64,000 nucleotides of DNA from Octopus vulgaris (lineage: Eukaryota): the NCBI GenBank assembly GCA_951406725.2, contig OX597825.1:61752001-61816000 (forward strand). Direction: 5' to 3'. The first letter of the stretch is position 1, and every line of letters begins with the position of its first letter. The notes under the pieces are model-generated. The model was not told where the DNA came from and searched no databases. It saw only the letters and a list, made by a program, of their open reading frames with translations. Of the stretch, positions 14,903-64,000 are shown in pieces. Position numbers and translations under genes: made by a program.

Positions 14903-15110
14903 GAGTTTCAGACCCCACTTCTCTGACATAAACCCTCTCTTTCAGGTATCCCCACAAGAAAAATTTGGTCTAGTCAAGTCTGGGGAACATGAAGGTCAGT
15001 TAACATTGCCATAGCAGGAGATTATTCTCTCTCCAAAGCACTGCCGTAGCAACTGCATTGTTTCTCTTGTAGTATGAGTAGTTGCCCCATCTTGCTGGAA
15101 CCATGTGTGA
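14903..15110 (-). pseudogene. Tc1/mariner DD41D (rosa/Visitor-like) transposase fragment
   Basis: Translates WFQQDGATTHTTRETMQLLRQCFGERIISCYGNVN*PSCSPDLTRPN then, after a frameshift, WGYLKERVY; 41 residues lie between the second D and the third catalytic position. Confidence 0.8.
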
Positions 15111-15117
15111 GGTCTAC

Positions 15118-15504
15118 TTTGAATGGCCTTCACTTTCCCCAGATTTGACTAGCCCAGATTTTTCATGCGGGGATAACTGAAAGAGAGGGTTTACATCAAC
15201 AAACTGGAGACACTGGTGCAACTGAAGGAGAACATCAATAAAGAAACAAGAGAAGTGGGGTCTGAAACTGTTGAGGGTGTTATGTGCAAGTTTTGGAAAG
15301 AGTACAGGCATGCAAAGATGAAAACGGCTGCCATTTAAGCGATGTCATTTTTCATATGTGATGTAGTGGTGTTGCAAAATTTGACTTATGCATATTAATT
15401 TACATTATGTTTTTTTATATTGTATCAAAATATCATGCATTTATTGGTAAAGCTAAGGAAGTTCTTAAAAATTGAAACCCATCAGTGACTTTTGGGACAT
15501 CCTG
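15118..15504 (+). mobile_element. 3' part of the same DD41D transposon family with its right TIR
   Basis: EWPSLSPDLTSPDF..LKERVYINK...ENGCHLSDVIF*; ends TTTTGGGACATCCTG|TA. Confidence 0.8.
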
Positions 15505-23444: not shown

Positions 23445-23760
23445 CCAGGAATCAGATTTTAACAAATTCCTTTACTCTCGACACATGTTTCGAAGACGGC
23501 ATACTTTTTTCGAGGAATCAAATGGTGCATTATGCTCGCTGGCATCAGGAAAGATAAGGATCCTCATTCAGCCACAAGAGTGAACAGAAAGTTTGATGAT
23601 TGCCTACATGGTCACCATGTAGGCATCATCAAAACCCTGAAAGAGCTCTTATCTTTCCTGATGAGAGATGGCATAGGTGTTTTTCCTTTGGAATAAACAC
23701 TCACAGCGCCTGTGTCTGAGGAATTTGAAAATCTTGTTTGACTCCATTCTTTCATTTATT
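23445..23760. mobile_element. Inverted-repeat element carrying two oppositely oriented hammerhead relics
   Basis: Minus strand 23475-23553: CTTTC-CTGATGC-stem-CGAAAC ATGT GTC-GAGAG. Plus strand about 23653-23675: CTTTC-CTGATGA-GAGATGGCATA (5' half only). Palindrome centre TGCCTACATGGT-C-ACCATGTAGGCA near 23613. Confidence 0.65.
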
Positions 23761-25324: not shown

Positions 25325-25477
25325 GGGCGATGCCTAGTCAAGGAATTAAACTGAGGACATTATGATTGTAAGCTAAACTACCAAACTACTAAGCCATAGG
25401 CCTTCATAGATTTTTGCGGAGATTAAAATTTATTCTCTATAAGAGATGAAAGTAGTAACTATACTGAGAAGTAATGT

Positions 25478-25609
25478 TTATCGCCACATCAATATGGCTG
25501 TTCTGTGGGAATTGATGTTACAGCCGCTTTTTAAGCCCAGGGAGAGCCTGGGGTTAAAAACGGTAGTAACATCGATTCCTATGGAACTGCTGTATTGATG
25601 TGGTGATAA
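25478..25609. repeat. Imperfect palindromic (foldback) element, ~63-bp arms, 5-nt loop
   Basis: TTATCGCCACATCAATA...GATGTTAC...CCCAGG-GAGAG-CCTGGG...GTAACATC...TATTGATGTGGTGATAA. Confidence 0.85.
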
Positions 25610-25868
25610 CCAAAATTTATTCTGTTATTTGTTTAGATCTGCTGTGCTGGGATTGTGAATGTGGTTATGAAAGATGATTTTCTTAATTCTTGTTTGTTTG
25701 CGATTATGTTTTTTATTGATTTGTCAAAAAGAAAGAGTAGTGCTCCCAAACCCTTTCAAGACGTATTTGACAAGATGGAGGGAGAAACATATCTCCAAAC
25801 TAAAGGCTTAACCCAAAAGCTTGCAGTAGAGTGGACTCTGCTAAAGACTCCGAAGGACCTAGTAATGA

Positions 25869-26780: not shown

Positions 26781-26858
26781 TGAGATACATGAGGATATTG
26801 TATTTGCAGTTCCATTATTTAAGCAGGAACTGCAGATACAATATCCTTGTGTATCTCA
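26781..26858. repeat. 33-bp inverted repeat hairpin just upstream of a hammerhead motif
   Basis: TGAGATACATGAGGATATTGTATTTGCAGTTCC, 12-nt loop, GGAACTGCAGATACAATATCCTTGTGTATCTCA. Confidence 0.85.
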
Positions 26859-28849: not shown

Positions 28850-29037
28850 TAAATAAGAATAAAGAGTATGGAAACTTGTACATCCACAAAATTAATTTTA
28901 TAGTTATACACAGCATATTATAATTACCTACATGTGTTTCCACAGCAGTAACCATCTATTAACTGTTGCACAATAACATGTGTAGGTCATTATAATATGC
29001 TGTATGTAATTACAAAATAATTTCCTTACTCTTCATT

Positions 29038-29838: not shown

Positions 29839-30115
29839 TCAATTGCTGATCTGGCCCTGGAGGAGGAATTCTCGATGCCCTGTACCACATTTCTTGGGGT
29901 GACACTTTTTTGCAGTTCTTCCAGATCGTTTGTCATCTTCTAGGGACGTTCTGCCACCTTTGAAGCACCTGTGCCACTCGAAAATTTCTGTACAACCCAT
30001 TGCCTCATCTCCGTAAGCTTGTTGAAACATGCTCAATGTCTCTGTAGCAGACTTCCCAAGTTTAACGCAAGATTTCACGTTGGTTCTTTGTTCCTGTCTT
30101 TGACAAAATCACAGA
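29839..30115 (-). pseudogene. mariner transposase N-terminal fragment (HTH), internally deleted
   Basis: KSCVKLGKSATETLSMFQQAYGDEAM..TEIFEWHRCFKGGRTSLEDDKRSGR is a typical mariner N-terminus. Confidence 0.85.
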
Positions 30116-30821: not shown

Positions 30822-31750
30822 TAGGGAATGGAGTAGATAAAAATCCAGGCTACATATGTTTCATTGCTAGCAAAACTTCAGAAGGAGTAATTGTCCAAAT
30901 GAGGGATAATCCACTAGCTACTCGTTAGACCAAAGATACCTTAATCAAATGATGTTTACATTGTTGTCAATGTAAACATCATGCTGACTGGCATGAGATT
31001 TGATCGCAAATGTGTGGAAAGCATAGAGATTGAGAAAAAATGGAAAGGATATTAGCGAAGAAGTAACATATGGGAAGTCTAAAATTTACTCTCTCCCATA
31101 TGTCTTGCAAACAACTTGCACATGCAAGTGCTACCAGTTAAAAGCTCCGTATATCGGAAGCTAGCAAGTGTATGGGGTCATCAGGAAAGAATGCGCGCTG
31201 TTTCGGGGCCTACCTCTCGACGGCATCAATGCGCACCGGCCCCCTCACTGATATGAGGCCCCGCTTGCTAGATCAGCTGGTTATGAAGAACTCAATAAAC
31301 TTCTAGCCATCGCTCATCATCTCTTTTTAACCAAATCCAGTGGCTAGCCTTCTCCACTGTAGATCGGATATCAGTCCTGGTGGTATTGACTTTACGATTA
31401 GTTAGGCCTAACGATAACAACAGTCGTCTCATGCTGTGTCCTACAAACCCTCTACATCCAACTTCGATAGGAAAATGTTCCGCTTTCCAGCCTGCGTCTT
31501 CACATTCCTCGAGGAGGTTTTCATAACGGTTTAATTTCCGAGCTCGAGCGGCGTCCATATTATCTTCTCAGCTGAGTCCCCTGCAAGTCAGCATGGGATC
31601 GCTTAACGACAATGTAAACTTCATTTGATTAAGGTATATTACGCCTGATGAGTAGCTTGCAGATTACCCCTTGTTTGGGCAATTACTCTTTGCAAGGTTC
31701 TGTTAGCTATGAAACATATGTAGCCTAGATTTTATCTATTCTATTCCCTA
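30822..31750. mobile_element. Foldback element with ~170-bp imperfect inverted arms enclosing a retrotransposon 3' end
   Basis: 30822-30993 aligns to the reverse complement of 31582-31750; shared blocks include AGGCTACATATGTTTCAT and ATACCTTAATCAAATGA.GTTTACATTGT. Confidence 0.85.
31140..31570 (-). pseudogene. 3' end of an RLE-type non-LTR retrotransposon (HERO/NeSL-like): endonuclease C-terminus plus 3' UTR
   Basis: ORF 31292-31558 AARARKLNRYENL..EC..AGWKA..FPIEVGCRGF...KASHWIWLKRDD..W matches the K..Y..L / EVGCRG / S.W.W.KR signature of this group. Confidence 0.85.
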
Positions 31751-37511: not shown

Positions 37512-38102
37512 TGGTAGAAACGTTAGCATGCTGGGTGAAATGCTTAGCGGTATTTTGTCTGCCGCTATGTTCTGAGTTCAAATTCTGCCAAGGTCGACTT
37601 TGCCTTTCATCCTTTTGGGGTCGATAAATTAAGTACCAGTTACGCACTGGGGTTGATGTAATCGACTTAATCCGTTTGTCTGTCCTTGTTTGTCCCCTCT
37701 GTGTTTAGGCCCTTGGGGGTAATAAAGAAATAGGTATTTTGTCTGCCGCTATGTTCTGAGTTCAAATTCTGCCAAGGCCAACTTTGCCTTTCATCCTTTC
37801 AGGGTCGATAAATTAAGTACCAGATGAATACCGGGGTCGATGTAATTAACTTAATCCGTTTGTCTGTCCTTGTTTGTCCCCTCTGTGTTTAGCCCCTTGT
37901 GGGTAGTAAAGAAATAGGTATTTCGTCTGTTGCTATGTTCTGCGTTCAAATTCTGCTGAGGTCGACTTTGCCTTTCATCCTTTCGGGGTCAATAAATTAA
38001 GTACCAGTTATGCACTGGGGTCAATTTAATTGACTTAAGCTCTTTTCCTGTCCTTTTTTGTCCCCTCTATGTTTAGCCCCTTGTGGGCAATACAGAAATA
38101 AA
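37512..38102 (+). mobile_element. SINE family B trimer (one head, three ~184-bp units)
   Basis: Units start at about 37551, 37734 and 37918 with junction AAAGAAATAG|GTATTT. Confidence 0.92.
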
Positions 38103-38807
38103 ATTTATTATTAGGTTTAGTATAATTGTTATCGCTCTTTGTAAAGTCATTACAATTGGAATTAAAATAGGCCTTTTTTATTCCTATTTCCAACTGCTTT
38201 GCTTCTGTCTGTATTACTAATTGTATTTGATTTTATTTGACTATCAAACTCTGCTTCTAAGTTTAATCTTTTCCTTTCTGCAATACCAACCCTAAAGTTT
38301 ACATTCCCTTTATGTTCGCTAATATAATTATCATTGAGTCTCTTCTTTTTGTTCTTTATTTTCCTTTTTATATTAATTAGCTATACTGTTGCTTGGTGCA
38401 TACTTATTTTCATTGTACCTAGCACTGGTTAGTGCTACTACATTGTAAAATACCCAGCATGTGAATTAACTAATGTTTCATTGGCAGAGAGCCTGAAAAT
38501 TCTATTTGAGACACCTTTCATTCTACTCTTAATACTGAATTCAGATGAGTGGATTTTCATTTACATACTTTAAATTCTCATTGTGTTTGTGATAGTATCG
38601 TAAAGTCTAGTGTTTAAATCAAATGCTACATCTACAAAAATTAACTACTTTATTTGTTATAGATAGTCTTAAATTTTTAAAGAATTTAAACAATTTTATC
38701 TAAATCGCTCCATTTCTACTCCACCAGGAAAAGAGAGTTGTCCTTAAATAGACCTGTGCAAGCACACAGCTATTGCTGGATCATATTTATATATTTATAT
38801 AATGAAA

Positions 38808-41884: not shown

Positions 41885-41919
<35 letters not shown>

Positions 41920-41920
41920 A

Positions 41921-42232
41921 TCATGTGATGTCACGTGACCGACTAGGCTATCAGATGTTGCTACACATCACTGGTCACAATGCACTCCACATTGCTTTAG
42001 CCTTCAAATGACACCACCCTGCTGGCTAAGTGAGCAGGCCAACAGAAGAAAGAGTGAGAGAAAGTTGCAGCGAAAGAGTACAGCAGGGATCACCACCATC
42101 CCCTGCCGGAACCTCGTGGAGCTTCAGGTGTTTTCGCTCAATAAACACTCACTATGCATGGTCTGGGAATCGAAACCACGATCCTACAACCGCGAGTCCA
42201 CTACCCTAACCACTGGGCCATTGCACCTCCAC
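41921..42232 (-). mobile_element. SINE family D with the GGTCACGTG tail
   Basis: GTGGAGGTGCAATGGCCCAGTGGTTAGGG head; flanked by TA repeats; homologous to 52316-52621 and to tail-only 27605-27716. Confidence 0.9.
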
Positions 42233-42624
42233 GTATGTATATATATATATATATATATATATAATGTATGTGCATGTATGAATGCATGTGTGTTTGTTTG
42301 TGTGTGTTTTATATATGTACACATATACATCACACACACAGACATACTATACTACATCTGTAACGCATATAACGAACACTTTAAAGAGGGGTGATTTTTA
42401 ATGCAGTATGCCTTCCTGAAATATGTGACAGGAAATGTCCCCTTATGTTCCATGTCAGGCAAAAACCTACCCTCCAGATGTGGCATATAAGACTACCCAC
42501 CTGACTCATGTAAGCAAAACAAAAAAAAAATTTACTTTGCTGACACATGAAATATAACCTTCAGGTACAGGTATGATAAACACTAAGGTAACAATGATCT
42601 GAGTAACAATGTTTACAACAACTG

Positions 42625-45521: not shown

Positions 45522-46091
45522 GGGGGAGACTTAGAGACTGATAGACAGCAATATGTTACATAGCACTACATAGTTAAATGTGGGTTTGTATTATATATAA
45601 AGACAATATTTTCATTGGTATAGTAAAAAAATAATCAAAATAACCAATGAGATGCATAGTAATTCCACTTTTTATCATTTTTGTTATTTTTCAATGCATA
45701 AACACAAAATCTTCATAAAATGTTTCATTATATTAAAGAGTTTTTATGATAATGTGTTAGCTGACTGATTGAATTTGCAAAGGACGTGACTCATTGGAGG
45801 AGTAATTTTTTGGAAGAAATTGATGTTAAGCTGGCAATGTGAGTGGACAATGAAACACAGCACAACCTTATTTTAAACTAAATCAATACTGATCTCCATT
45901 ATTACTGCTGCAGTGTGTACCATATTGGAAAATACCTCTTGCTGATGTTTGATGCAGGAAAGAAATGAGCTGAGCAAACATTCCAGCTGGTTGCTGTTGT
46001 TCTGGAAGGGAAGACTAGATCTAGTGATTAGTGAAAAGTCTGGTGGGTTAGTGTTGTGTGGACGCCCTCAGACGATGAAGTAGGCTAGCCC

Positions 46092-46325
46092 TATTTCTTT
46101 ACTACCCACAAGGAGCTAAACACAGAGAGGACAAACAAGGACAGACAAACAGATTTAGTCGATTACATCGACCCCAGTGCGTAACTGGTTCTTAATTTAT
46201 CGACCCAGAAAGAATAAAAGTCAAAGTTGACCTCGGCGGAATTTGAACTCAGAACATAACGGCAGACGAAATACGGCTATGCATTTCGCCCGGTCTGCTA
46301 ACGTTTCAGCCATCTCACCGCCTTC
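46092..46325 (-). mobile_element. SINE family B monomer with 16-bp TSD
   Basis: Perfect TSD TGAAGTAGGCTAGCCC at 46076-46091 and 46326-46341. Confidence 0.93.
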
Positions 46326-46951
46326 TGAAGTAGGCTAGCCCAATACGTAGATATAGAGGGAGACGCCTAGACATCCAGAGCACAGTCGAACAGTCGGAGT
46401 CGAGTTGAGTAGGAGGCATCCGAACATGTGACATAACAGTGGCAACGAGGATTTTGTAGAACACACAGCCACTGTGTAGTATTGCCATATAACAGTGGTG
46501 ATGAGGATATCGTAACTCACACAGCTACTGTGTAGTATTGCCATATAGCAGTTAGTCAAACAAGAGTAATGAGAGGAGGAGAAACGAATAGGACAGCAAT
46601 GTTTGAGTGGATGTCATAGGTGCACAAGCAGCTCTGATGACCACTTGATTAGAGGGAAAATTCTATTTGGTGGATGCTCTAGGAAAGAGGGTTTGGATGT
46701 AGTGATATTTGTGACACCTGGGGAAGATGTTAGGCAGACAAATTATGGGAAGAAGAGAGATGTGTCAGAGAGCAATGCATGTATGAAGGAGACATGTGAA
46801 CAGGTAACTCTGATGAACATGTGAACTCTTATGAATAAGTGAACTCTGATGAACATGAAATTCCTGATGGTGAATGCTCTAGGAGAGAAGGCTTTGGTGT
46901 AATGGTAATTGCGAGGCCTTGGGAAGGTATTAGATACACACAAATTATGAA

Positions 46952-47368
46952 AGGCAGTGAGCTGGCAGAAACGTTAGCATGCTGTGCAAAATGCTTAGCG
47001 GTATTTCGTCTGCCATTACGTTGTGAGTTCAAATTCCATCAAGGTCGACTTTGCCTTTCGTCCTTTCGGGGTCGATAAATTAAGTACCAGTTATGCACTG
47101 GGGTCGATGTAATCGAGTTAATCCGTTTGTCTGTCCTTGTTCGTCCCCTTTGTGTTTAGCCCCTTGTGGGTAGTAAAGAAATAGGTATTTCATCTGCCGT
47201 TATGTTCTGAGTTCAAATTCTGCCAAGGTCGACTTTCCCTTTTATTCTTTTGGGGTTGATAAATTAAGTACCAGTTATGCACTGGGGTCGATGTAATCAG
47301 CTTAATCCCTTTGTATGTCCTTGTTTGTCCCCTTTATGTTTAGCTCCTTGTGGGCAATAAAGAAATAA
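46952..47368 (+). mobile_element. SINE family B dimer
   Basis: Second unit starts at 47185 with the same AAAGAAATAG|GTATTT junction as the trimer. Confidence 0.92.
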
Positions 47369-47849
47369 GAAATTAATAGGACAGAAATGAATGTGTGAGG
47401 GTGATGTATGCATTGCCAGCCCTGAGGACAAAATGACTTGAAGATAAGTTATAGATTGCTGATGTTCTAGAAAAGAAGGGCTGAGTGAGGGATTAATGTG
47501 GGGCTTGGATTGAGAGGTTGGATGCACGAGATTGCTGAGAGGAAGGAAGACATGTAGAATAGTAATGAATGAGAGAATGTAACATGTACCCAAACAAGCT
47601 CCGAGGAGAGGGGCCAAATGATTCTTGAATATGATTTATATCTTTTTAAAAAAATCTAAAAATATTAGTTTCAACTTTAGTATTTTTTCAGTGTGCAGTT
47701 TGAAGAAGGAAAGTAAGACTCATGACTCTTTCAGGCAATTTCAAAACTTGCAGAATCAAGGTATTCTCAGGTCAGACTTTAAAACCCACAAAGCAAAAAG
47801 CATTATAGAAAAAACAACACAACAGAGTATGCAAGGTATTGTTGTATAT

Positions 47850-49827: not shown

Positions 49828-51818
49828 TACTTACTTACACATAATATTTACAATTAAATTATCTATTTAATACTCTAGTATGGATATTCTTTGAGGTCCT
49901 TAAATATAGAACTAAAATTTCTGAATTAACTGATGTTCTGTTTTTGTAATGACAAACACTGAAAAATGGCTTTCTTGCTTAGATATCTTCAAGAAATATT
50001 CCAGGAAGATAACTTTAACCTCAATTTTTAAAACAAAAATGATGGCATGTTAATACGTATATTATATCTAGGACTGTGAGTTAAATTATGGTAACTTTTT
50101 GGCCTTTTCAGACCACAGGACCACATCTGGCCTCAGGGTTGTATGGACAACCTGGGGAAACTATATTATATCTTTTTGTGGACTTTATTCTGGAGGTATT
50201 GATCCCTGTTTATATGATCCAACTTACTAAAATTATATATCAAAATGTAGTGAAACAAATTGAGAAATGATGAACCTTAATGTGCCAAGAGTCTCTCTTC
50301 CCTTAACTCTTATCTTAACTCTTTTTCCCAGTCCAGACTTCCTTCTGAAGGATTGTAAACTCTCTGGATTCTCTCTCTTGCTGCTACTTTCAAGTTGTTG
50401 CTTTAAAAGAACTGCAAGCATGTTTATCTCATCACCTTGCAGGGCCTGTCAGGGGTGAAAAACTGAGCCTTTTCCCCTTCACCAAGGAACTAGAGATAAA
50501 AATGAAAAACTCACTTCAGAGAATGAGGACTTATTCAATTATATTGGACAGAAATTTAAGAAGTTCATAATTAGCAGTAACTCTGTAAACTGCAGAGTAT
50601 TTTGAAATCACTGTGTTGTTAGTTATATTTTTACTGTACTGTAACTTTCTGAAAACCCTGTAGAATAATTATATCAAACAGAATAAATTTGCAGAAAATA
50701 GTTCTTCCTTTAAAATGCTATATTGAAATTAACATTTGTACCTTAATGTAATTCTGAGATGTTTACATTAAACATGAAGAATTTAGTGTCTTTCAAGAAG
50801 TTGTTAGTTCTAAAGATAAAAAAAAATTAAAATTTGGAAATTACTAGATAAATTTCACGTTCATTGAAATAGCATAATTTTAGAAAATATCAATATTTTT
50901 GATAAAATATAATTAAATGAAAAAAATTAAATTAAATTATTGATTGAATTAGACATTCAGAATCAATTTTTGCAAATAAATTTTTTAGGATAAAATGTTC
51001 ATATACAGTTATCTTTTAAGATAACAGTATATATATATTTTTTATTTTATTTAAGTGTACCATCTGAGTATCTTAAAATCAATAACCCTGAGGCTTTTAG
51101 TTCAATACTGAGCTTAGATTAAGATAGTTGATTTCTTTTCCTCTTAGAAAGTACAGGTCATAGACTGAAGAAATATGCATCATAATAACTAATTCTCAAA
51201 GACCGATGTATAAAGGAACCATGACATTTTCCAAACATGTTGCACAACTAGATTGTAATATTGTTAGTTTCTCTGAATATTTATATTTTACATACAGCTT
51301 GCATTGTGGGAGATTACCTTCAGCAGCTATTGAAAAGGAATTATAATGATGTTAGGATCTTCTCATAGTGTCACATCTTCTAATAGTGCCAAACAGCATT
51401 GACGACACTAGGCAATATTCCAGATTCTTCCATATCACATCTTAACATGTTTTCATTTTCTCTTTAACAACTATGAAGTTACTGCATTAAATCAGTGATA
51501 GCTACAGTTAAGGATCATTAATTTCATTTATCTCTGATTACATGCTAACCATGCAGCAACAATGTTTCTTTCATTATATACTTTTAGCTTTGGTTTTTCT
51601 TTTCAACACTTTTTCTGTTATATTAACCTACATACGAAGATGAACACTTTATATATGGATTAGTGGATAACAGAAGGTTAGTATGCCAGTAGATTGACTA
51701 TGTGCTGTTGTTAGAATTGTATGCACATTTGTGTTTAAACAACACATGTTTTCTTTCAAGAATTGTGCAAGCTTTTGGTTGGAAGGAGTTGAGTTTCTTT
51801 TATAACTATATATATTTT

Positions 51819-52090
51819 GTGACGTATATTTGCCATTTGAATATGGCTAACCCCTAAGGGTGGATGCTACTGTAGTTTGTAGCCCCAGGAGGACACCTCC
51901 TCCAGCTGGCTATAGACACACTTTCTGTGCCCTATCAGTAGACGGGAGGGATGGCTTCCCTTCGCAAATACTGATAGGGCACAGAAAGTGTGTCTATAGC
52001 CAGCTGGAGGAGGTGTCCTCCTGGGGCTACAAACTACAGTAGCATCCACCCTTAGGGGTTAGCCATATTCAAATGGCAAATATACGTCAC
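51819..52090. repeat. Perfect long inverted repeat (122-bp arms, 28-nt spacer); probable palindromic mobile element
   Basis: 51819-51940 reads as the exact reverse complement of 51969-52090; the mirror ORFs 51860..52042(+) and 51867..52049(-) differ only across the spacer. Confidence 0.95.
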
Positions 52091-52315
52091 GATGTGTAGC
52101 TGCTACTGTTTATAACTCACTCTGAGATTTATCATTGTTATATATATTTTATTTCTTATTCTTTCATGGACATACTAACTAGTAAATCAAACTGTCTTAA
52201 CGCTCCATGTTTGTCCCACACCAAATTGATTTCTTACTTTACAAAATTAATAATTCTGGGGTTGAACTCATTTGGATCTTGATTTAGTTTATAAAAATAC
52301 ACTAATATACCTATA

Positions 52316-52621
52316 TCACGTGACCACGTGACCGACCAGATCATCAGATGTTGTTACACATCGCTGGTCACAATGGGTTCACATTGTTTTAGCCTTCAAA
52401 TGACGCCACCCCGCTGGCTAAGCGAGCAGGCCAACAGAAGAAAGAGTGGGAGAAAGAGTGGTGAAAGAGTACAGCAGGGATCACCACTCCCTGCCGGAGC
52501 CTCGTTGAGCTTTTAGGTGTTTTCGCTCAATAGACACTCACAATGCCCGGTCTGGGAATCAAAACCGCGATCCTACGACCGCGAGTCCGCTGCCCTAACC
52601 ACTGGGCCATTGCACCTCCAC
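52316..52621 (-). mobile_element. SINE family D, CpG-rich (young)
   Basis: Homologous to 41921-42232; ATACCTATAT on both flanks is a probable TSD. Confidence 0.9.
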
Positions 52622-53220
52622 ATATACCTATATATCAGGATTATATTATTTCTTTGTAACTGCCTCTGTTCATCATACACAGTCATATAATAATGTATCT
52701 GATTTCTTGTTCATTTTTTTATTTAATATCTGTTTTTCCATACTGCCATGATTTAGATGGGGATTATTTGAGTCAGATTTTAATGGTCAGATGCTCTTCT
52801 TTTCACCAACTCTTACCTACAAGGTTATTACCAATTCAAATATACAGAAGGAAAACGTTTTTTCAACAATTTTTATCTTGGAATTCACCTGCGTAAATTA
52901 CACAGGTGCGCAAATTACATGGGTCCGACTGATTAAAATTATATTTATTTGTGCAGCTGCATTTAAATTGATGTAATGATTGCATTGTTCAATTAAATGG
53001 AGCCGCTTGAAACAGTCATACTGCATCACCTCTTGATATCCTGTTACTTATTTTGATTTTATACACACACACACAACACACACACACACATACACTCACA
53101 CCCACAAACACAATGAAAGGATATTAAAGAAAGGAGTTAACAAATTACATTCATTGCTTATTTGCAATTGTTTTGTTAACTTCAATTAAATCAATCATAC
53201 ATCATCCTAGTTCACCAGCT

Positions 53221-53359: not shown

Positions 53360-54776
<1,417 letters not shown>

Positions 54777-57939: not shown

Positions 57940-58470
57940 CTCTTCTATTTTTTAATTATCATAAATCTTCCTCTGAGGAAGGAGCCAGTTTCCAACAAAG
58001 ATACAAGGCTCTATCTTTAGGATGCAGTTAACACAGACAAATTCACATTTACAATTTGAGAAAAGTCTTACATATTTTTATTGTTCCACTCATAGATTGA
58101 ACTTGTAATGTACGAATTAGCTGGTTAAATTCTGTTTCTAAAAATCCAAGTTTAGCCAGATTTTCCTTTAAGCGTTTACTAACAAAACCTAGTGCTCCAA
58201 TTATTATTGGTATGAATATGAATTCATAGTCTGCATATATAAGCTGGATATTTCGAAGCAGCTGTCCATAGATATCCTTTTTTACTTTGATCTTCAAAGG
58301 GATATTTTTATCTGCAGGGCAGCTGACCTCTATGATTGTACATACCAATGCCACACTGACCAAAACTACAATATCTAGCCTGTTATGTTTACATTTGACA
58401 GAAGATTTGATGGGAATATTCCACCAGTATTCCTTGAGTTGATGTTTATGAATGTTTATTTCAGAACAAT
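57940..58470 (-). pseudogene. R4/Dong-like non-LTR retrotransposon 3' end (restriction-like endonuclease)
   Basis: EYWWNIPIKSSVKCKHNRLDIVV...CTIIEVSCPAD.N...K...Y..L...IPIIIGALG matches the HNRPD..IE...P / K..Y..L / GALG RLE signature; flanked by (TATG)n. Confidence 0.85.
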
Positions 58471-58534
58471 CTTTTGTATGCTTGTATGTATGTATGTATG
58501 TATGTATGTATGTATGTATGTATGTATGTATGTA

Positions 58535-58782
58535 TCATATCTGTCGGGCATGTGGAAGAGAGTGTAATTCGGCAGGAGGACTTAAACGACATGCAAAGGT
58601 ACATGAAGCCCAGTTACAACTACAGCCAGCTATTACCAGTAAAGGTTTTAGTTGCCAATTTTGTACAAAACATTGTAGATCTTTAGCTGGGCTAAAAAGT
58701 CACATTCGATCACAGCACCAGTAACAGTTAAGCTTCGTGCAATGGCCATACTTGATAACGAGGGGACAGCCATAATAATAAT
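58535..58782 (+). pseudogene. RTE-clade LINE 3' end with two C2H2 fingers and an (ATA)n tail
   Basis: CRACGREC.SAGGLKRHAKVH and CQFCTKHCRSLAGLKSHIRSQH*, short 3' UTR ending CGAGGGGACAGCC(ATA)n, embedded in (TATG)n. Confidence 0.75.
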
Positions 58783-61392: not shown

Positions 61393-62153
61393 TATATTAT
61401 TATATATATATAAATGGTAAGGAGAGAAAGAGAGAGTGAGTGAAAATCAAAGTGGCACACGAAAAGAATCACTAGAAAAAGACTATAAAACATAGAACAC
61501 CTTTGGTTGGGCCTGAGCCAGCTAATGAAAATAGTTTTAATGCATTTAAATTTCAATGATTTTAAACTGCATGGGACTACACTGCTGGTTGTTCCTGAGA
61601 ATGTTAGTAACAATAAAGTGGTAGAAGCTACAGAGGACAGGATTTAGAATAAAGAAGACAACAAGAATATATTTTGTGGTCTCTCAACAAGGAATGGACA
61701 AAATAACATCTTTAGTGGGTTTTAGCACGAAAGGAAAAAAACAGTAAAAGATCTTTTGTCATATTGTGAAAATGAGAAAAATAGAAGTAATTCAGAACGT
61801 AAAAGCTTAATGATTTTCATTCTAGGAAAGAGAGAGAATGAAGGAAAGCAATTTGGAGATCAGCTTCTGCAGTAGTGGAAGTATGAGAAGGAGCAGAATA
61901 TGAGAGAGAAGTGTATAGAAAATGTGAGGGAGGAGAAAAAGAAAGAGAGCAGATAAAATAAGAGAGAGTGGGTCAGGATTGAAGATAAGGGGAAAGGAGG
62001 AAGAAATGATAGGTAGCAGAGAGAACAAGCAATACAGAGTGAGAGAGAGAGGGGGGAGAGCGAGGGAGTGGGAGGGAGGGAGAGGAAGAAAAGTTGGAGT
62101 AGTCACAATGAGAGGAGAAAGACGTCTGTAAATGAACAATAATTGTAGGATGG

Positions 62154-62446
62154 AGGGCAGTGAGCTGGCAGAATCGGTAGCACACCGGGCGAAATGCTTA
62201 GCAGTATTTCGTCTACCGCTACGTTCTGAGTTCAAATTCCGCCGAGGTCGACTTTACCTTTCATCCTTTTGGGGTCGATAAATTAAGTACCAGTCACGCA
62301 TTGGGTTCGATGTAATCGACTTAATCCCTGTGTCTGTCCTTGTTTGTCCCATCTATGTTTAGCCCCTTGTGGGCACAACTTAATCCCTGTGTCTGTCTTT
62401 GTTTGTCCCCTCTATGTTTAGCCCCTTGTGGGCAATAAAGAAATAA
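62154..62446 (+). mobile_element. SINE family B with a duplicated 3' ~58 bp
   Basis: ACTTAATCCCTGTGTCTGTC...CCCCTTGTGGGCA occurs twice; ends GGGCAATAAAGAAATAA. Confidence 0.9.
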
Positions 62447-63076: not shown

Positions 63077-63838
63077 CATGTGTTCACATGCAAGCATGAC
63101 TGTGTGGTTAAGAAGTTTCCCTCCCACCTATGTTGTCTTGAGTTCTGTTGTAGTCCGTAGCACCTTGGATAAGTATATTCTGTGATTGCTCCAAGAGCAA
63201 AAAATGTGGTAAAAAGAAGTGCTCTGTGTATTTACTATTCCGATGGGAGTGTAAAACTGCAACCACATCAATACTAATTCTTGAAATAATGAGCTGAAAA
63301 TTAACTGACACCCTATCTAAGTCAGGAACATTAAATTCTTGCTTCTTGATGATTTCTTATGGACCTATTGAGGTTGACAAAGGAGAAGGATTTCTACATT
63401 CAAAGCACCAAGTCAACTTTATCATCATGGGACACATCTTTCTCTTCTAAATGGTGACTGCAAACATCTGCAGTTGCAAATAATAGGCAATGAATAAAAT
63501 CAGAGAAGGCAACATTATAGCAACGTTCCAAAGGCTATAACACTGCAATTAATATGCAGCAAGCTTTAAAATTGCTCTTGGGAATATCAATGAAAGTGTT
63601 GTGAAAATTAGCATCTATCCAAATAATGTGCCCTTTAGAGAACATGATTGTCATTTTAAAGCTTCTGTCTGTAACAAGTTACCATTCTACTTGTTCAGCA
63701 GGAATTCCATGCAAGAGATATAATTCTGTGATTTCACCAGAATTTCAGAAGTACACTGTTACAAGAACAAGAAAGTTAGATACAAATTTAGTGCCTAAAG
63801 ATGTGATTATAAAAAAATATCACAAAATGATTTCTATA

Positions 63839-64000
63839 CCTATTTCTTTACTAACCACAAGGGGCTAAACACAGAGAGGACAAACAAGAACAGACAAATG
63901 GATTAAGTCGATTATATCGACCCCAGTGCGTAACTGGTACTTATCTAATCAACCCCGAAAGGATGAAAGGCAAAGTCGACCTCCGGCGGAATTTGAACTC
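63839..64000 (-). mobile_element. SINE family B (5' part outside the window)
   Basis: Reverse complement of the family B core and tail. Confidence 0.9.

Follow-up and report, generated by a model that had tools for sequence, protein, structure and literature searches.

A perfect 122-bp fold-back in Octopus vulgaris as the inner part of a 320-bp insertion, probably the 3' end of a Penelope-like retroelement

The DNA analysed here (hereafter the window) is a stretch of 64,000 nucleotides from contig OX597825.1 of the Octopus vulgaris assembly GCA_951406725.2, and is overall AT-rich animal DNA with many microsatellites and dispersed repeats. The first-pass annotation had described a mismatch-free palindrome at 51819-52090, and the two arms (51819-51940 and 51969-52090, 122 nt each, with a 28-nt spacer between them) are indeed 100% complementary over 122 nt. 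Three of its further remarks also held: the spacer can pair further, by 7 bp, the hairpin is GC-richer than its flanks (GC 0.50 vs. 0.31 and 0.30), and there is no convincing open-reading frame, a 63-aa frame across the hairpin having no Pfam match. Folded as RNA the hairpin gave z = -34, none of 100 shuffles being equally stable, and formation of dsRNA or of a cruciform is structurally possible. The window held no Rfam match at the gathering score; below that threshold ten hairpin matches were found, ribozymes being absent, and these included several miRNA models, on which the element scores because of its hairpin shape alone. Other close copies of the hairpin element were not found by blastn in the 64-kb window, and exact motif scans had no matches in metagenome contigs, viral contigs or prokaryote genomes.

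Four public runs, of which three are DNA or probable DNA (from three studies) and one is guessed to be RNA, supplied contigs that were mapped to 51400-52300. The 122-base perfect hairpin proved to be the inner portion of a longer insertion, 320 bases in length, that belongs to a very abundant repeat. Depth over the body exceeded that over the flank by ratios of 20,600 (run X1), 24,000 (X4) and 21,600 (X5), which are summed contig depth and give an order of magnitude only, not a copy number. Family depth reaches bin 52113-52143, and every one of the four runs has a cluster of loose ends at 52136-52139; at the other end, loose ends before 51940 carry related letters, again in 4/4 runs. Since the family extends both past the right arm and upstream of the spacer, a single truncated forward copy occupies 51940/51941-52138. 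The spacer belongs to this copy as ordinary family sequence, and the left arm repeats its inner 122 bp in inverted orientation. The insertion (51819-52138) thus consists of the truncated left-arm copy, which is inverted, the forward copy and, on one side only, a 48-bp tail, and the earlier 272-bp unit was too short, as the family runs 48 nt beyond the right arm and ends near 52137-52138. We read 51940..52138 as the element's 3' end, on an inferred orientation. The features are:

51807..51818, forward strand: left 12-bp direct repeat TATATATATTTT, adjoining the tail-less arm; likely a target-site duplication
51819..51940, reverse strand: left arm, an inverted, truncated copy of the same sequence as 51969-52090; its outer junction lies in single-copy contigs
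51940..52138, forward strand: forward copy of the high-copy repeat, cut off at 51940/51941, with loose ends before 51940 and behind 52136-52139
51941..51968, forward strand: spacer, unbroken family sequence containing an intrinsic hairpin (axis 51954.0; inversion axis 51954.5)
51969..52090, forward strand: right arm, the section of the forward copy that recurs inverted as the left arm, with several small hairpins
52073..52138, forward strand: ATG-started 22-codon frame ending at the unit end, with one stop, at the variant letter 52098
52091..52138, forward strand: one-sided tail of 48 bp, family sequence missing from the inverted copy
52139..52150, forward strand: right 12-bp direct repeat, then A (TTTT/A), adjoining the tail end
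25425..25623, reverse strand: second insertion, of a distantly related family and the same build, with arms at ~25475-25611 of 78% identity

The hairpin had been reported to lack a target-site duplication, a reading that was wrong because the true unit is longer than first described: a 12-bp direct repeat, TATATATATTTT, composed of A/T only, adjoins the left arm at 51807-51818 and the tail end at 52139-52150. This 12-mer is present three times in the window, and in a placement control a non-dinucleotide 12-bp repeat was so placed at 69 of 21067 window positions (0.33%). The two copies are likely a target-site duplication. No joint skipping the insertion, as an empty site would give, was seen among the 15 of 55 joints listed. 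The short frame at 52073..52138 had no match in a protein search, and its stop falls on 52098, a letter read differently by nearly all other family contigs. The frame is a faint hint of an open-reading-frame start of the pseudo-LTR (pLTR) type, faint because its ATG is absent from the second element at 25425..25623.

That second element was picked up with the forward copy as nhmmer query, which returned two weak matches in the window (E 0.04 and 0.06), these being both arms of the palindrome at 25475-25611. It lies in the opposite orientation to 51819-52138 and repeats the same anatomy, with 12-bp direct repeats at 25425-25436 and 25612-25623 (11 of 12 letters A/T) and a 38-bp tail at 25437-25474; its direct repeat had a control placement at 255 of 21067 positions. 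In both elements the repeat ends in TTTT and adjoins the tail-less arm, with A after the other copy. By alignment, its arm ends within ~5 nt of the equivalent of 52090. With arms at 78% identity, it is the older of the two. Six other inverted repeats in the window were not of this build, four having no direct repeat, one an offset 9-bp match and one pure (TA)n.

Among the remaining inverted repeats, 30822-30993 and 31582-31750 form a 172-bp pair of 80% identity around ~590 bp, which includes a 91-aa frame (31292-31567, minus strand); the frame had no Pfam match, and we take it to resemble the C-terminal endonuclease region of a restriction-like LINE. Around the pair, no flanking direct repeat of ≥9 bp was found. 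A 70-bp inverted repeat of 87% identity lies at 14929-14998 and 15124-15193, 125 nt apart and with no flanking direct repeat found, and its right copy seems to extend with more matching letters after a gap. Decayed palindromes at 28889-29023 (74%), 26781-26858 (84%) and 23592-23633 (93% self-complementary) are unrelated to the hairpin's family.

In favour of an assembly fold-back artefact, no contig among the 32 of 13173 pieces listed bridges the central or right junction, while bins 52175-52300 have zero depth in all four runs, although such gaps in cover prove nothing. The left outer junction, however, is present in single-copy contigs of X1, X4 and X5, which reach 51842, 51846 and 51846 and so enter the arm by 24-28 nt. 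One of these three runs may be the assembly's own source, and even so a junction found in three samples from three studies is neither assembly-specific nor private to one individual. The two flanks also differ in sequence, and the 12-bp repeat together with the tail fits a biological insertion, twice in the window. We therefore consider an artefact highly improbable.

We attribute the identity of the arms to a young insertion in which one arm was copied from the other. Zero arm differences correspond to a divergence of at most ~1.2% per arm (95%), and if the octopus calibration of PMC13282606 applies (JC 0.09 = 25 million years, from the part of that source available to us) the insertion would be bounded at about 3 million years. 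The annotation had offered a very recent insertion as one of two options; this stands in a weak sense, as the ≤1.2% per arm allows, whereas a left junction common to three samples means that it is not private. It had alternatively proposed that the arms are homogenised by conversion. On this view the insertion would be older, and gene conversion or hairpin repair would have made its arms alike afterwards, which would account for a tail with divergent letters at 52098 and 52101 beside arms in which the 40 of 60 rows listed show nothing private. In those same rows 52098 is near-private and 52101 rare within the family, and one private plus one rare tail letter fits ~1% divergence; conversion is not required to account for the identity of the arms. 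At 0.5-1% divergence, identical arms are expected in 9-29% of cases. The left flank has only 0, 1 and 1 differing letters in 443-447 (X1, X4 and X5), and in the older element the arms have diverged to 78% identity and were not homogenised; homogenisation is thus very unlikely.

The long perfect inverted repeat, non-coding character and high copy number would suit a DNA transposon of the MITE or foldback kind, bounded by long terminal inverted repeats, or else a tyrosine-recombinase element of the Crypton type. We reject the transposon, as a 48-bp tail separates the right arm from the direct repeat: the inverted repeats are not termini and the duplication flanks an asymmetric unit, family sequence carries on upstream of the spacer, and the contig joints show inversion points that vary between copies. 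Cryptons, as defined in the part of PMC3212892 available to us, have no terminal inverted repeats and 4-6-bp terminal direct repeats, contrary to the 122-bp inverted copies and 12-bp repeat found here, and the tyrosine-recombinase/Crypton route guessed at earlier is set aside on that definition. Taken as one class, these DNA-element explanations are scarcely credible.

Other family copies in the contigs bear on how the inverted arm arises. Inversions are common in the family, as all 15 of the joints listed (of 55) join opposite orientations when mapped onto one arm. Five of the seven joints without listed inserted letters fall ≤3 nt from a family hairpin axis, vs. 31% expected (p ~0.03), in a post hoc test that excludes six joints with inserted letters and uses joints which, lying within repeats, may be assembly chimeras. 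In X4, ten contigs carry (TA)n loose ends at 51807, and other family copies probably also end in (TA)n at the outer end of the arm. At the loose ends at 51933, 51976 and 52009 the same alternative letters recur in most runs or in all of them, which indicates that the repeat has two or more subfamilies, one of them lacking the CUGA motif at 51971. The guessed RNA run contributed 247 family contigs and left the flanks uncovered, and so says nothing about expression at this locus; its A>G differences at eight places, against five to six in the DNA runs, are no evidence of editing.

We are highly confident that 51819-52138 is a target-primed retroposon insertion. There is a good chance that the enzyme was of the Penelope type, and we consider the insertion to be, probably, the pseudo-LTR at the 3' end of a Penelope-like retroelement (PLE), its inverted arm having probably been made during insertion. 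Both elements have an inverted, 5'-truncated copy directly beside a forward copy. Both have a one-sided tail, for which ~30-40 bp is usual in PLEs; that of the second element is 38 bp, and that of the first, at 48 bp, is longer than published. The 12-bp repeats of both correspond to a short target-site duplication in an AT-rich or (TA)n target. A hairpin also lies at the inverted junction, as the inner breakpoints (51940 and 51969) are symmetric about 51954.5 and the intrinsic hairpin axis is 51954.0.

In the proposed mechanism the element's endonuclease would make staggered nicks 12 nt apart in the AT-rich target, with TTTT/A at one of them, and one nick would prime reverse transcription at the family end (52138). 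Synthesis would halt at ~51940, just beyond the natural hairpin, where the cDNA end would fold back on that hairpin and copy itself out to 52090. Joining of the 52090 end to the other nick would then leave a 48-nt tail on one side only and the 12-bp duplication. Given a Penelope-type enzyme, we lean towards such a self-priming fold-back; that both nicks were instead primed, at two internal RNA sites, is a possibility we hold a little short of even. Fold-back of the first cDNA is favoured because the breakpoints are symmetric on the family's own hairpin, where two separately truncated cDNAs would have no reason to meet, and because joints lie near hairpin axes in other copies. The outer end at 52090 looks recurrent, from the X4 loose ends and the second element, and would accordingly be set by the element's enzyme, which both priming models allow.

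Membership of the family among PLEs is likely rather than demonstrated, because no parent RT/GIY-YIG open-reading frame or canonical hammerhead was found. A weak protein search with the forward frame returned no proteins at E ≤ 10, none of the 150 (of 220) window frames covered had an RT or GIY-YIG Pfam match, and, unlike in published PLEs, no RT or endonuclease was seen in the element itself. A descriptor scan (strict or allowing one core change) detected no canonical hammerhead in the part of each element that is present, nor did Rfam ribozymes match. A possible hammerhead relic, a CUGA with a 6-bp stem and an 8-nt palindrome in hammerhead order ~120 nt before the arm end, was noticed post hoc and is discounted because three of its core positions are wrong. 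The two elements differ in this from hammerhead-bearing PLEs (Penelope/Poseidon, Neptune and Hydra) and from non-LTR retrozymes.

Absence of a hammerhead from both elements also suits the main rival explanation, the 3' end of a LINE or of a LINE-driven SINE, inserted through an APE or REL endonuclease by TPRT with 5' inversion via twin priming or cDNA fold-back. The 12-bp duplications of both elements end in TTTT/A. This motif resembles the LINE-1 endonuclease site consensus, and such a nick keeps a LINE-driven origin alive as an unlikely alternative. Human L1 likewise forms inverted duplications at small hairpins with the target-site duplication kept, as described in the part of 10.1101/2024.12.14.628481 available to us, so that LINE-1 5' inversions and inverted duplications share with the octopus insertion a target-site duplication, a TTTT/A-like nick and inversion at a small hairpin with 1-2 nt of microhomology. 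Unlike these, the octopus elements end on neither side in poly(A) or a tandem repeat. Their inverted part is a second copy of 3'-proximal sequence of the element and not of upstream sequence, and both carry one-sided tails of 38-48 nt, which according to the part of PMC8557442 we drew on are not observed in non-LTR TPRT. Inversions moreover appear frequent in this family, again in favour of a PLE.

The anatomy on which the PLE reading draws is already in print. In the available portion of PMC8557442, PLE insertions have an inverted 5'-truncated copy, a 30-40-bp one-sided tail and a (TA)n preference, and Naiads are without a canonical hammerhead; PMC3846280, in the text accessible to us, describes inverted pLTRs with 8-10-bp target-site duplications, a 31-bp tail and junction palindromes interpreted as self-priming. 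Thus Pen2a_Av (of Adineta vaga), Naiad, Hydra and Penelope/Poseidon share with 51819-52138 the inverted and forward truncated copies, the one-sided tail and the short target-site duplication, as well as the AT-rich or (TA)n target and the junction palindrome, and Pen2a_Av also has 22 codons from ATG to tail end, as in the frame at 52073..52138. Here, in contrast to the published PLEs, only ~200 bp of 3' end is present, the tail is 48 nt rather than 30-40, and the target-site duplication is 12 bp rather than 8-10. The insertion behaves like a PLE inverted-pair insertion and is probably one.

A further parallel is PAc, a Poseidon of the green anole, for which the part of PMC11167929 available to us describes in vitro cutting and extension of both target strands, an AT-rich target and two RT start sites that bound the tail and lie beside a stem-loop. 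Like the PAc start, the arm here ends ~13 nt past a hairpin, which the second element also recognisably has. Unlike the octopus elements, with their TTTT/A nick and a hammerhead core that is not intact, PAc carries an active hammerhead and prefers an ATT nick motif (PMC11167929).

PLEs make up 6.83% of the O. vulgaris assembly, in 190 families, according to the accessible part of PMC13282606. The octopus elements treated in the portion of PMC8557442 at hand (Naiad_Ovul, Naiad_Obim, Naiad_Omin and Hydra-1_Obim) are alike in (TA)n preference, and its Naiads also have no canonical hammerhead. Five 14-mers from the arm had no matches in that source's Naiad/Chlamys/Hydra consensus files as available to us, in which line breaks could mask single matches, and the 3' ends of Naiad and Hydra-1_Obim given there are unlike the repeat family by eye. 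Compared by exact 14-mers and by eye, the family appears different from the published octopus Naiad and Hydra families. A literature search found no description of it, and Repbase, Dfam or an O. vulgaris library may well contain it.

The single locus matters little, being one copy of an abundant repeat whose insertion structure is already published. The family offers many natural junctions on how PLE inverted copies and tails arise, and perfect fold-backs of this kind can easily be mistaken for MITEs, microRNA precursors or assembly errors. Young perfect copies within transcripts would be predicted to serve as strong ADAR or Dicer substrates. A bolder proposal, which we regard as doubtful, is that a family of the order of 10,000 copies, without a working hammerhead and with an L1-like TTTT/A nick, routinely writes perfect fold-backs with a fixed tail. 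Such a family would represent a non-autonomous lineage of PLEs not yet described, or else a LINE-driven element with PLE-style double-ended insertion. If so, the thousands of junctions that it has left would allow a decision between self-priming and two-site priming, and a cephalopod genome would carry its own supply of long dsRNA for A-to-I editing.

Several other dispersed sequences occur in the window. A copy of an abundant repeat at 52305-52635, 150 bp to the right of the hairpin insertion and 86% identical to 41908-42246, is presumably a tRNA-derived SINE on the minus strand. Mariner-type transposase fragments lie at 53664-53903 and 29842-30108, both on the minus strand (Transposase_1, E 3.6e-18; HTH_48, E 3.3e-06). 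A 161-aa frame at 58049-58534 (minus strand), without a Pfam match, is one we take to resemble the endonuclease end of an R4/Dong-type LINE, and it adjoins a plus-strand frame at 58452-58721 with sub-cut-off C2H2 zinc-finger matches. A unit of ~184 bp forms head-to-tail arrays of 84-90% identity at 37512-38110 and 46947-47378, and occurs as single copies at 812-1051, 46090-46323, 62150-62445 and 63836-64000.
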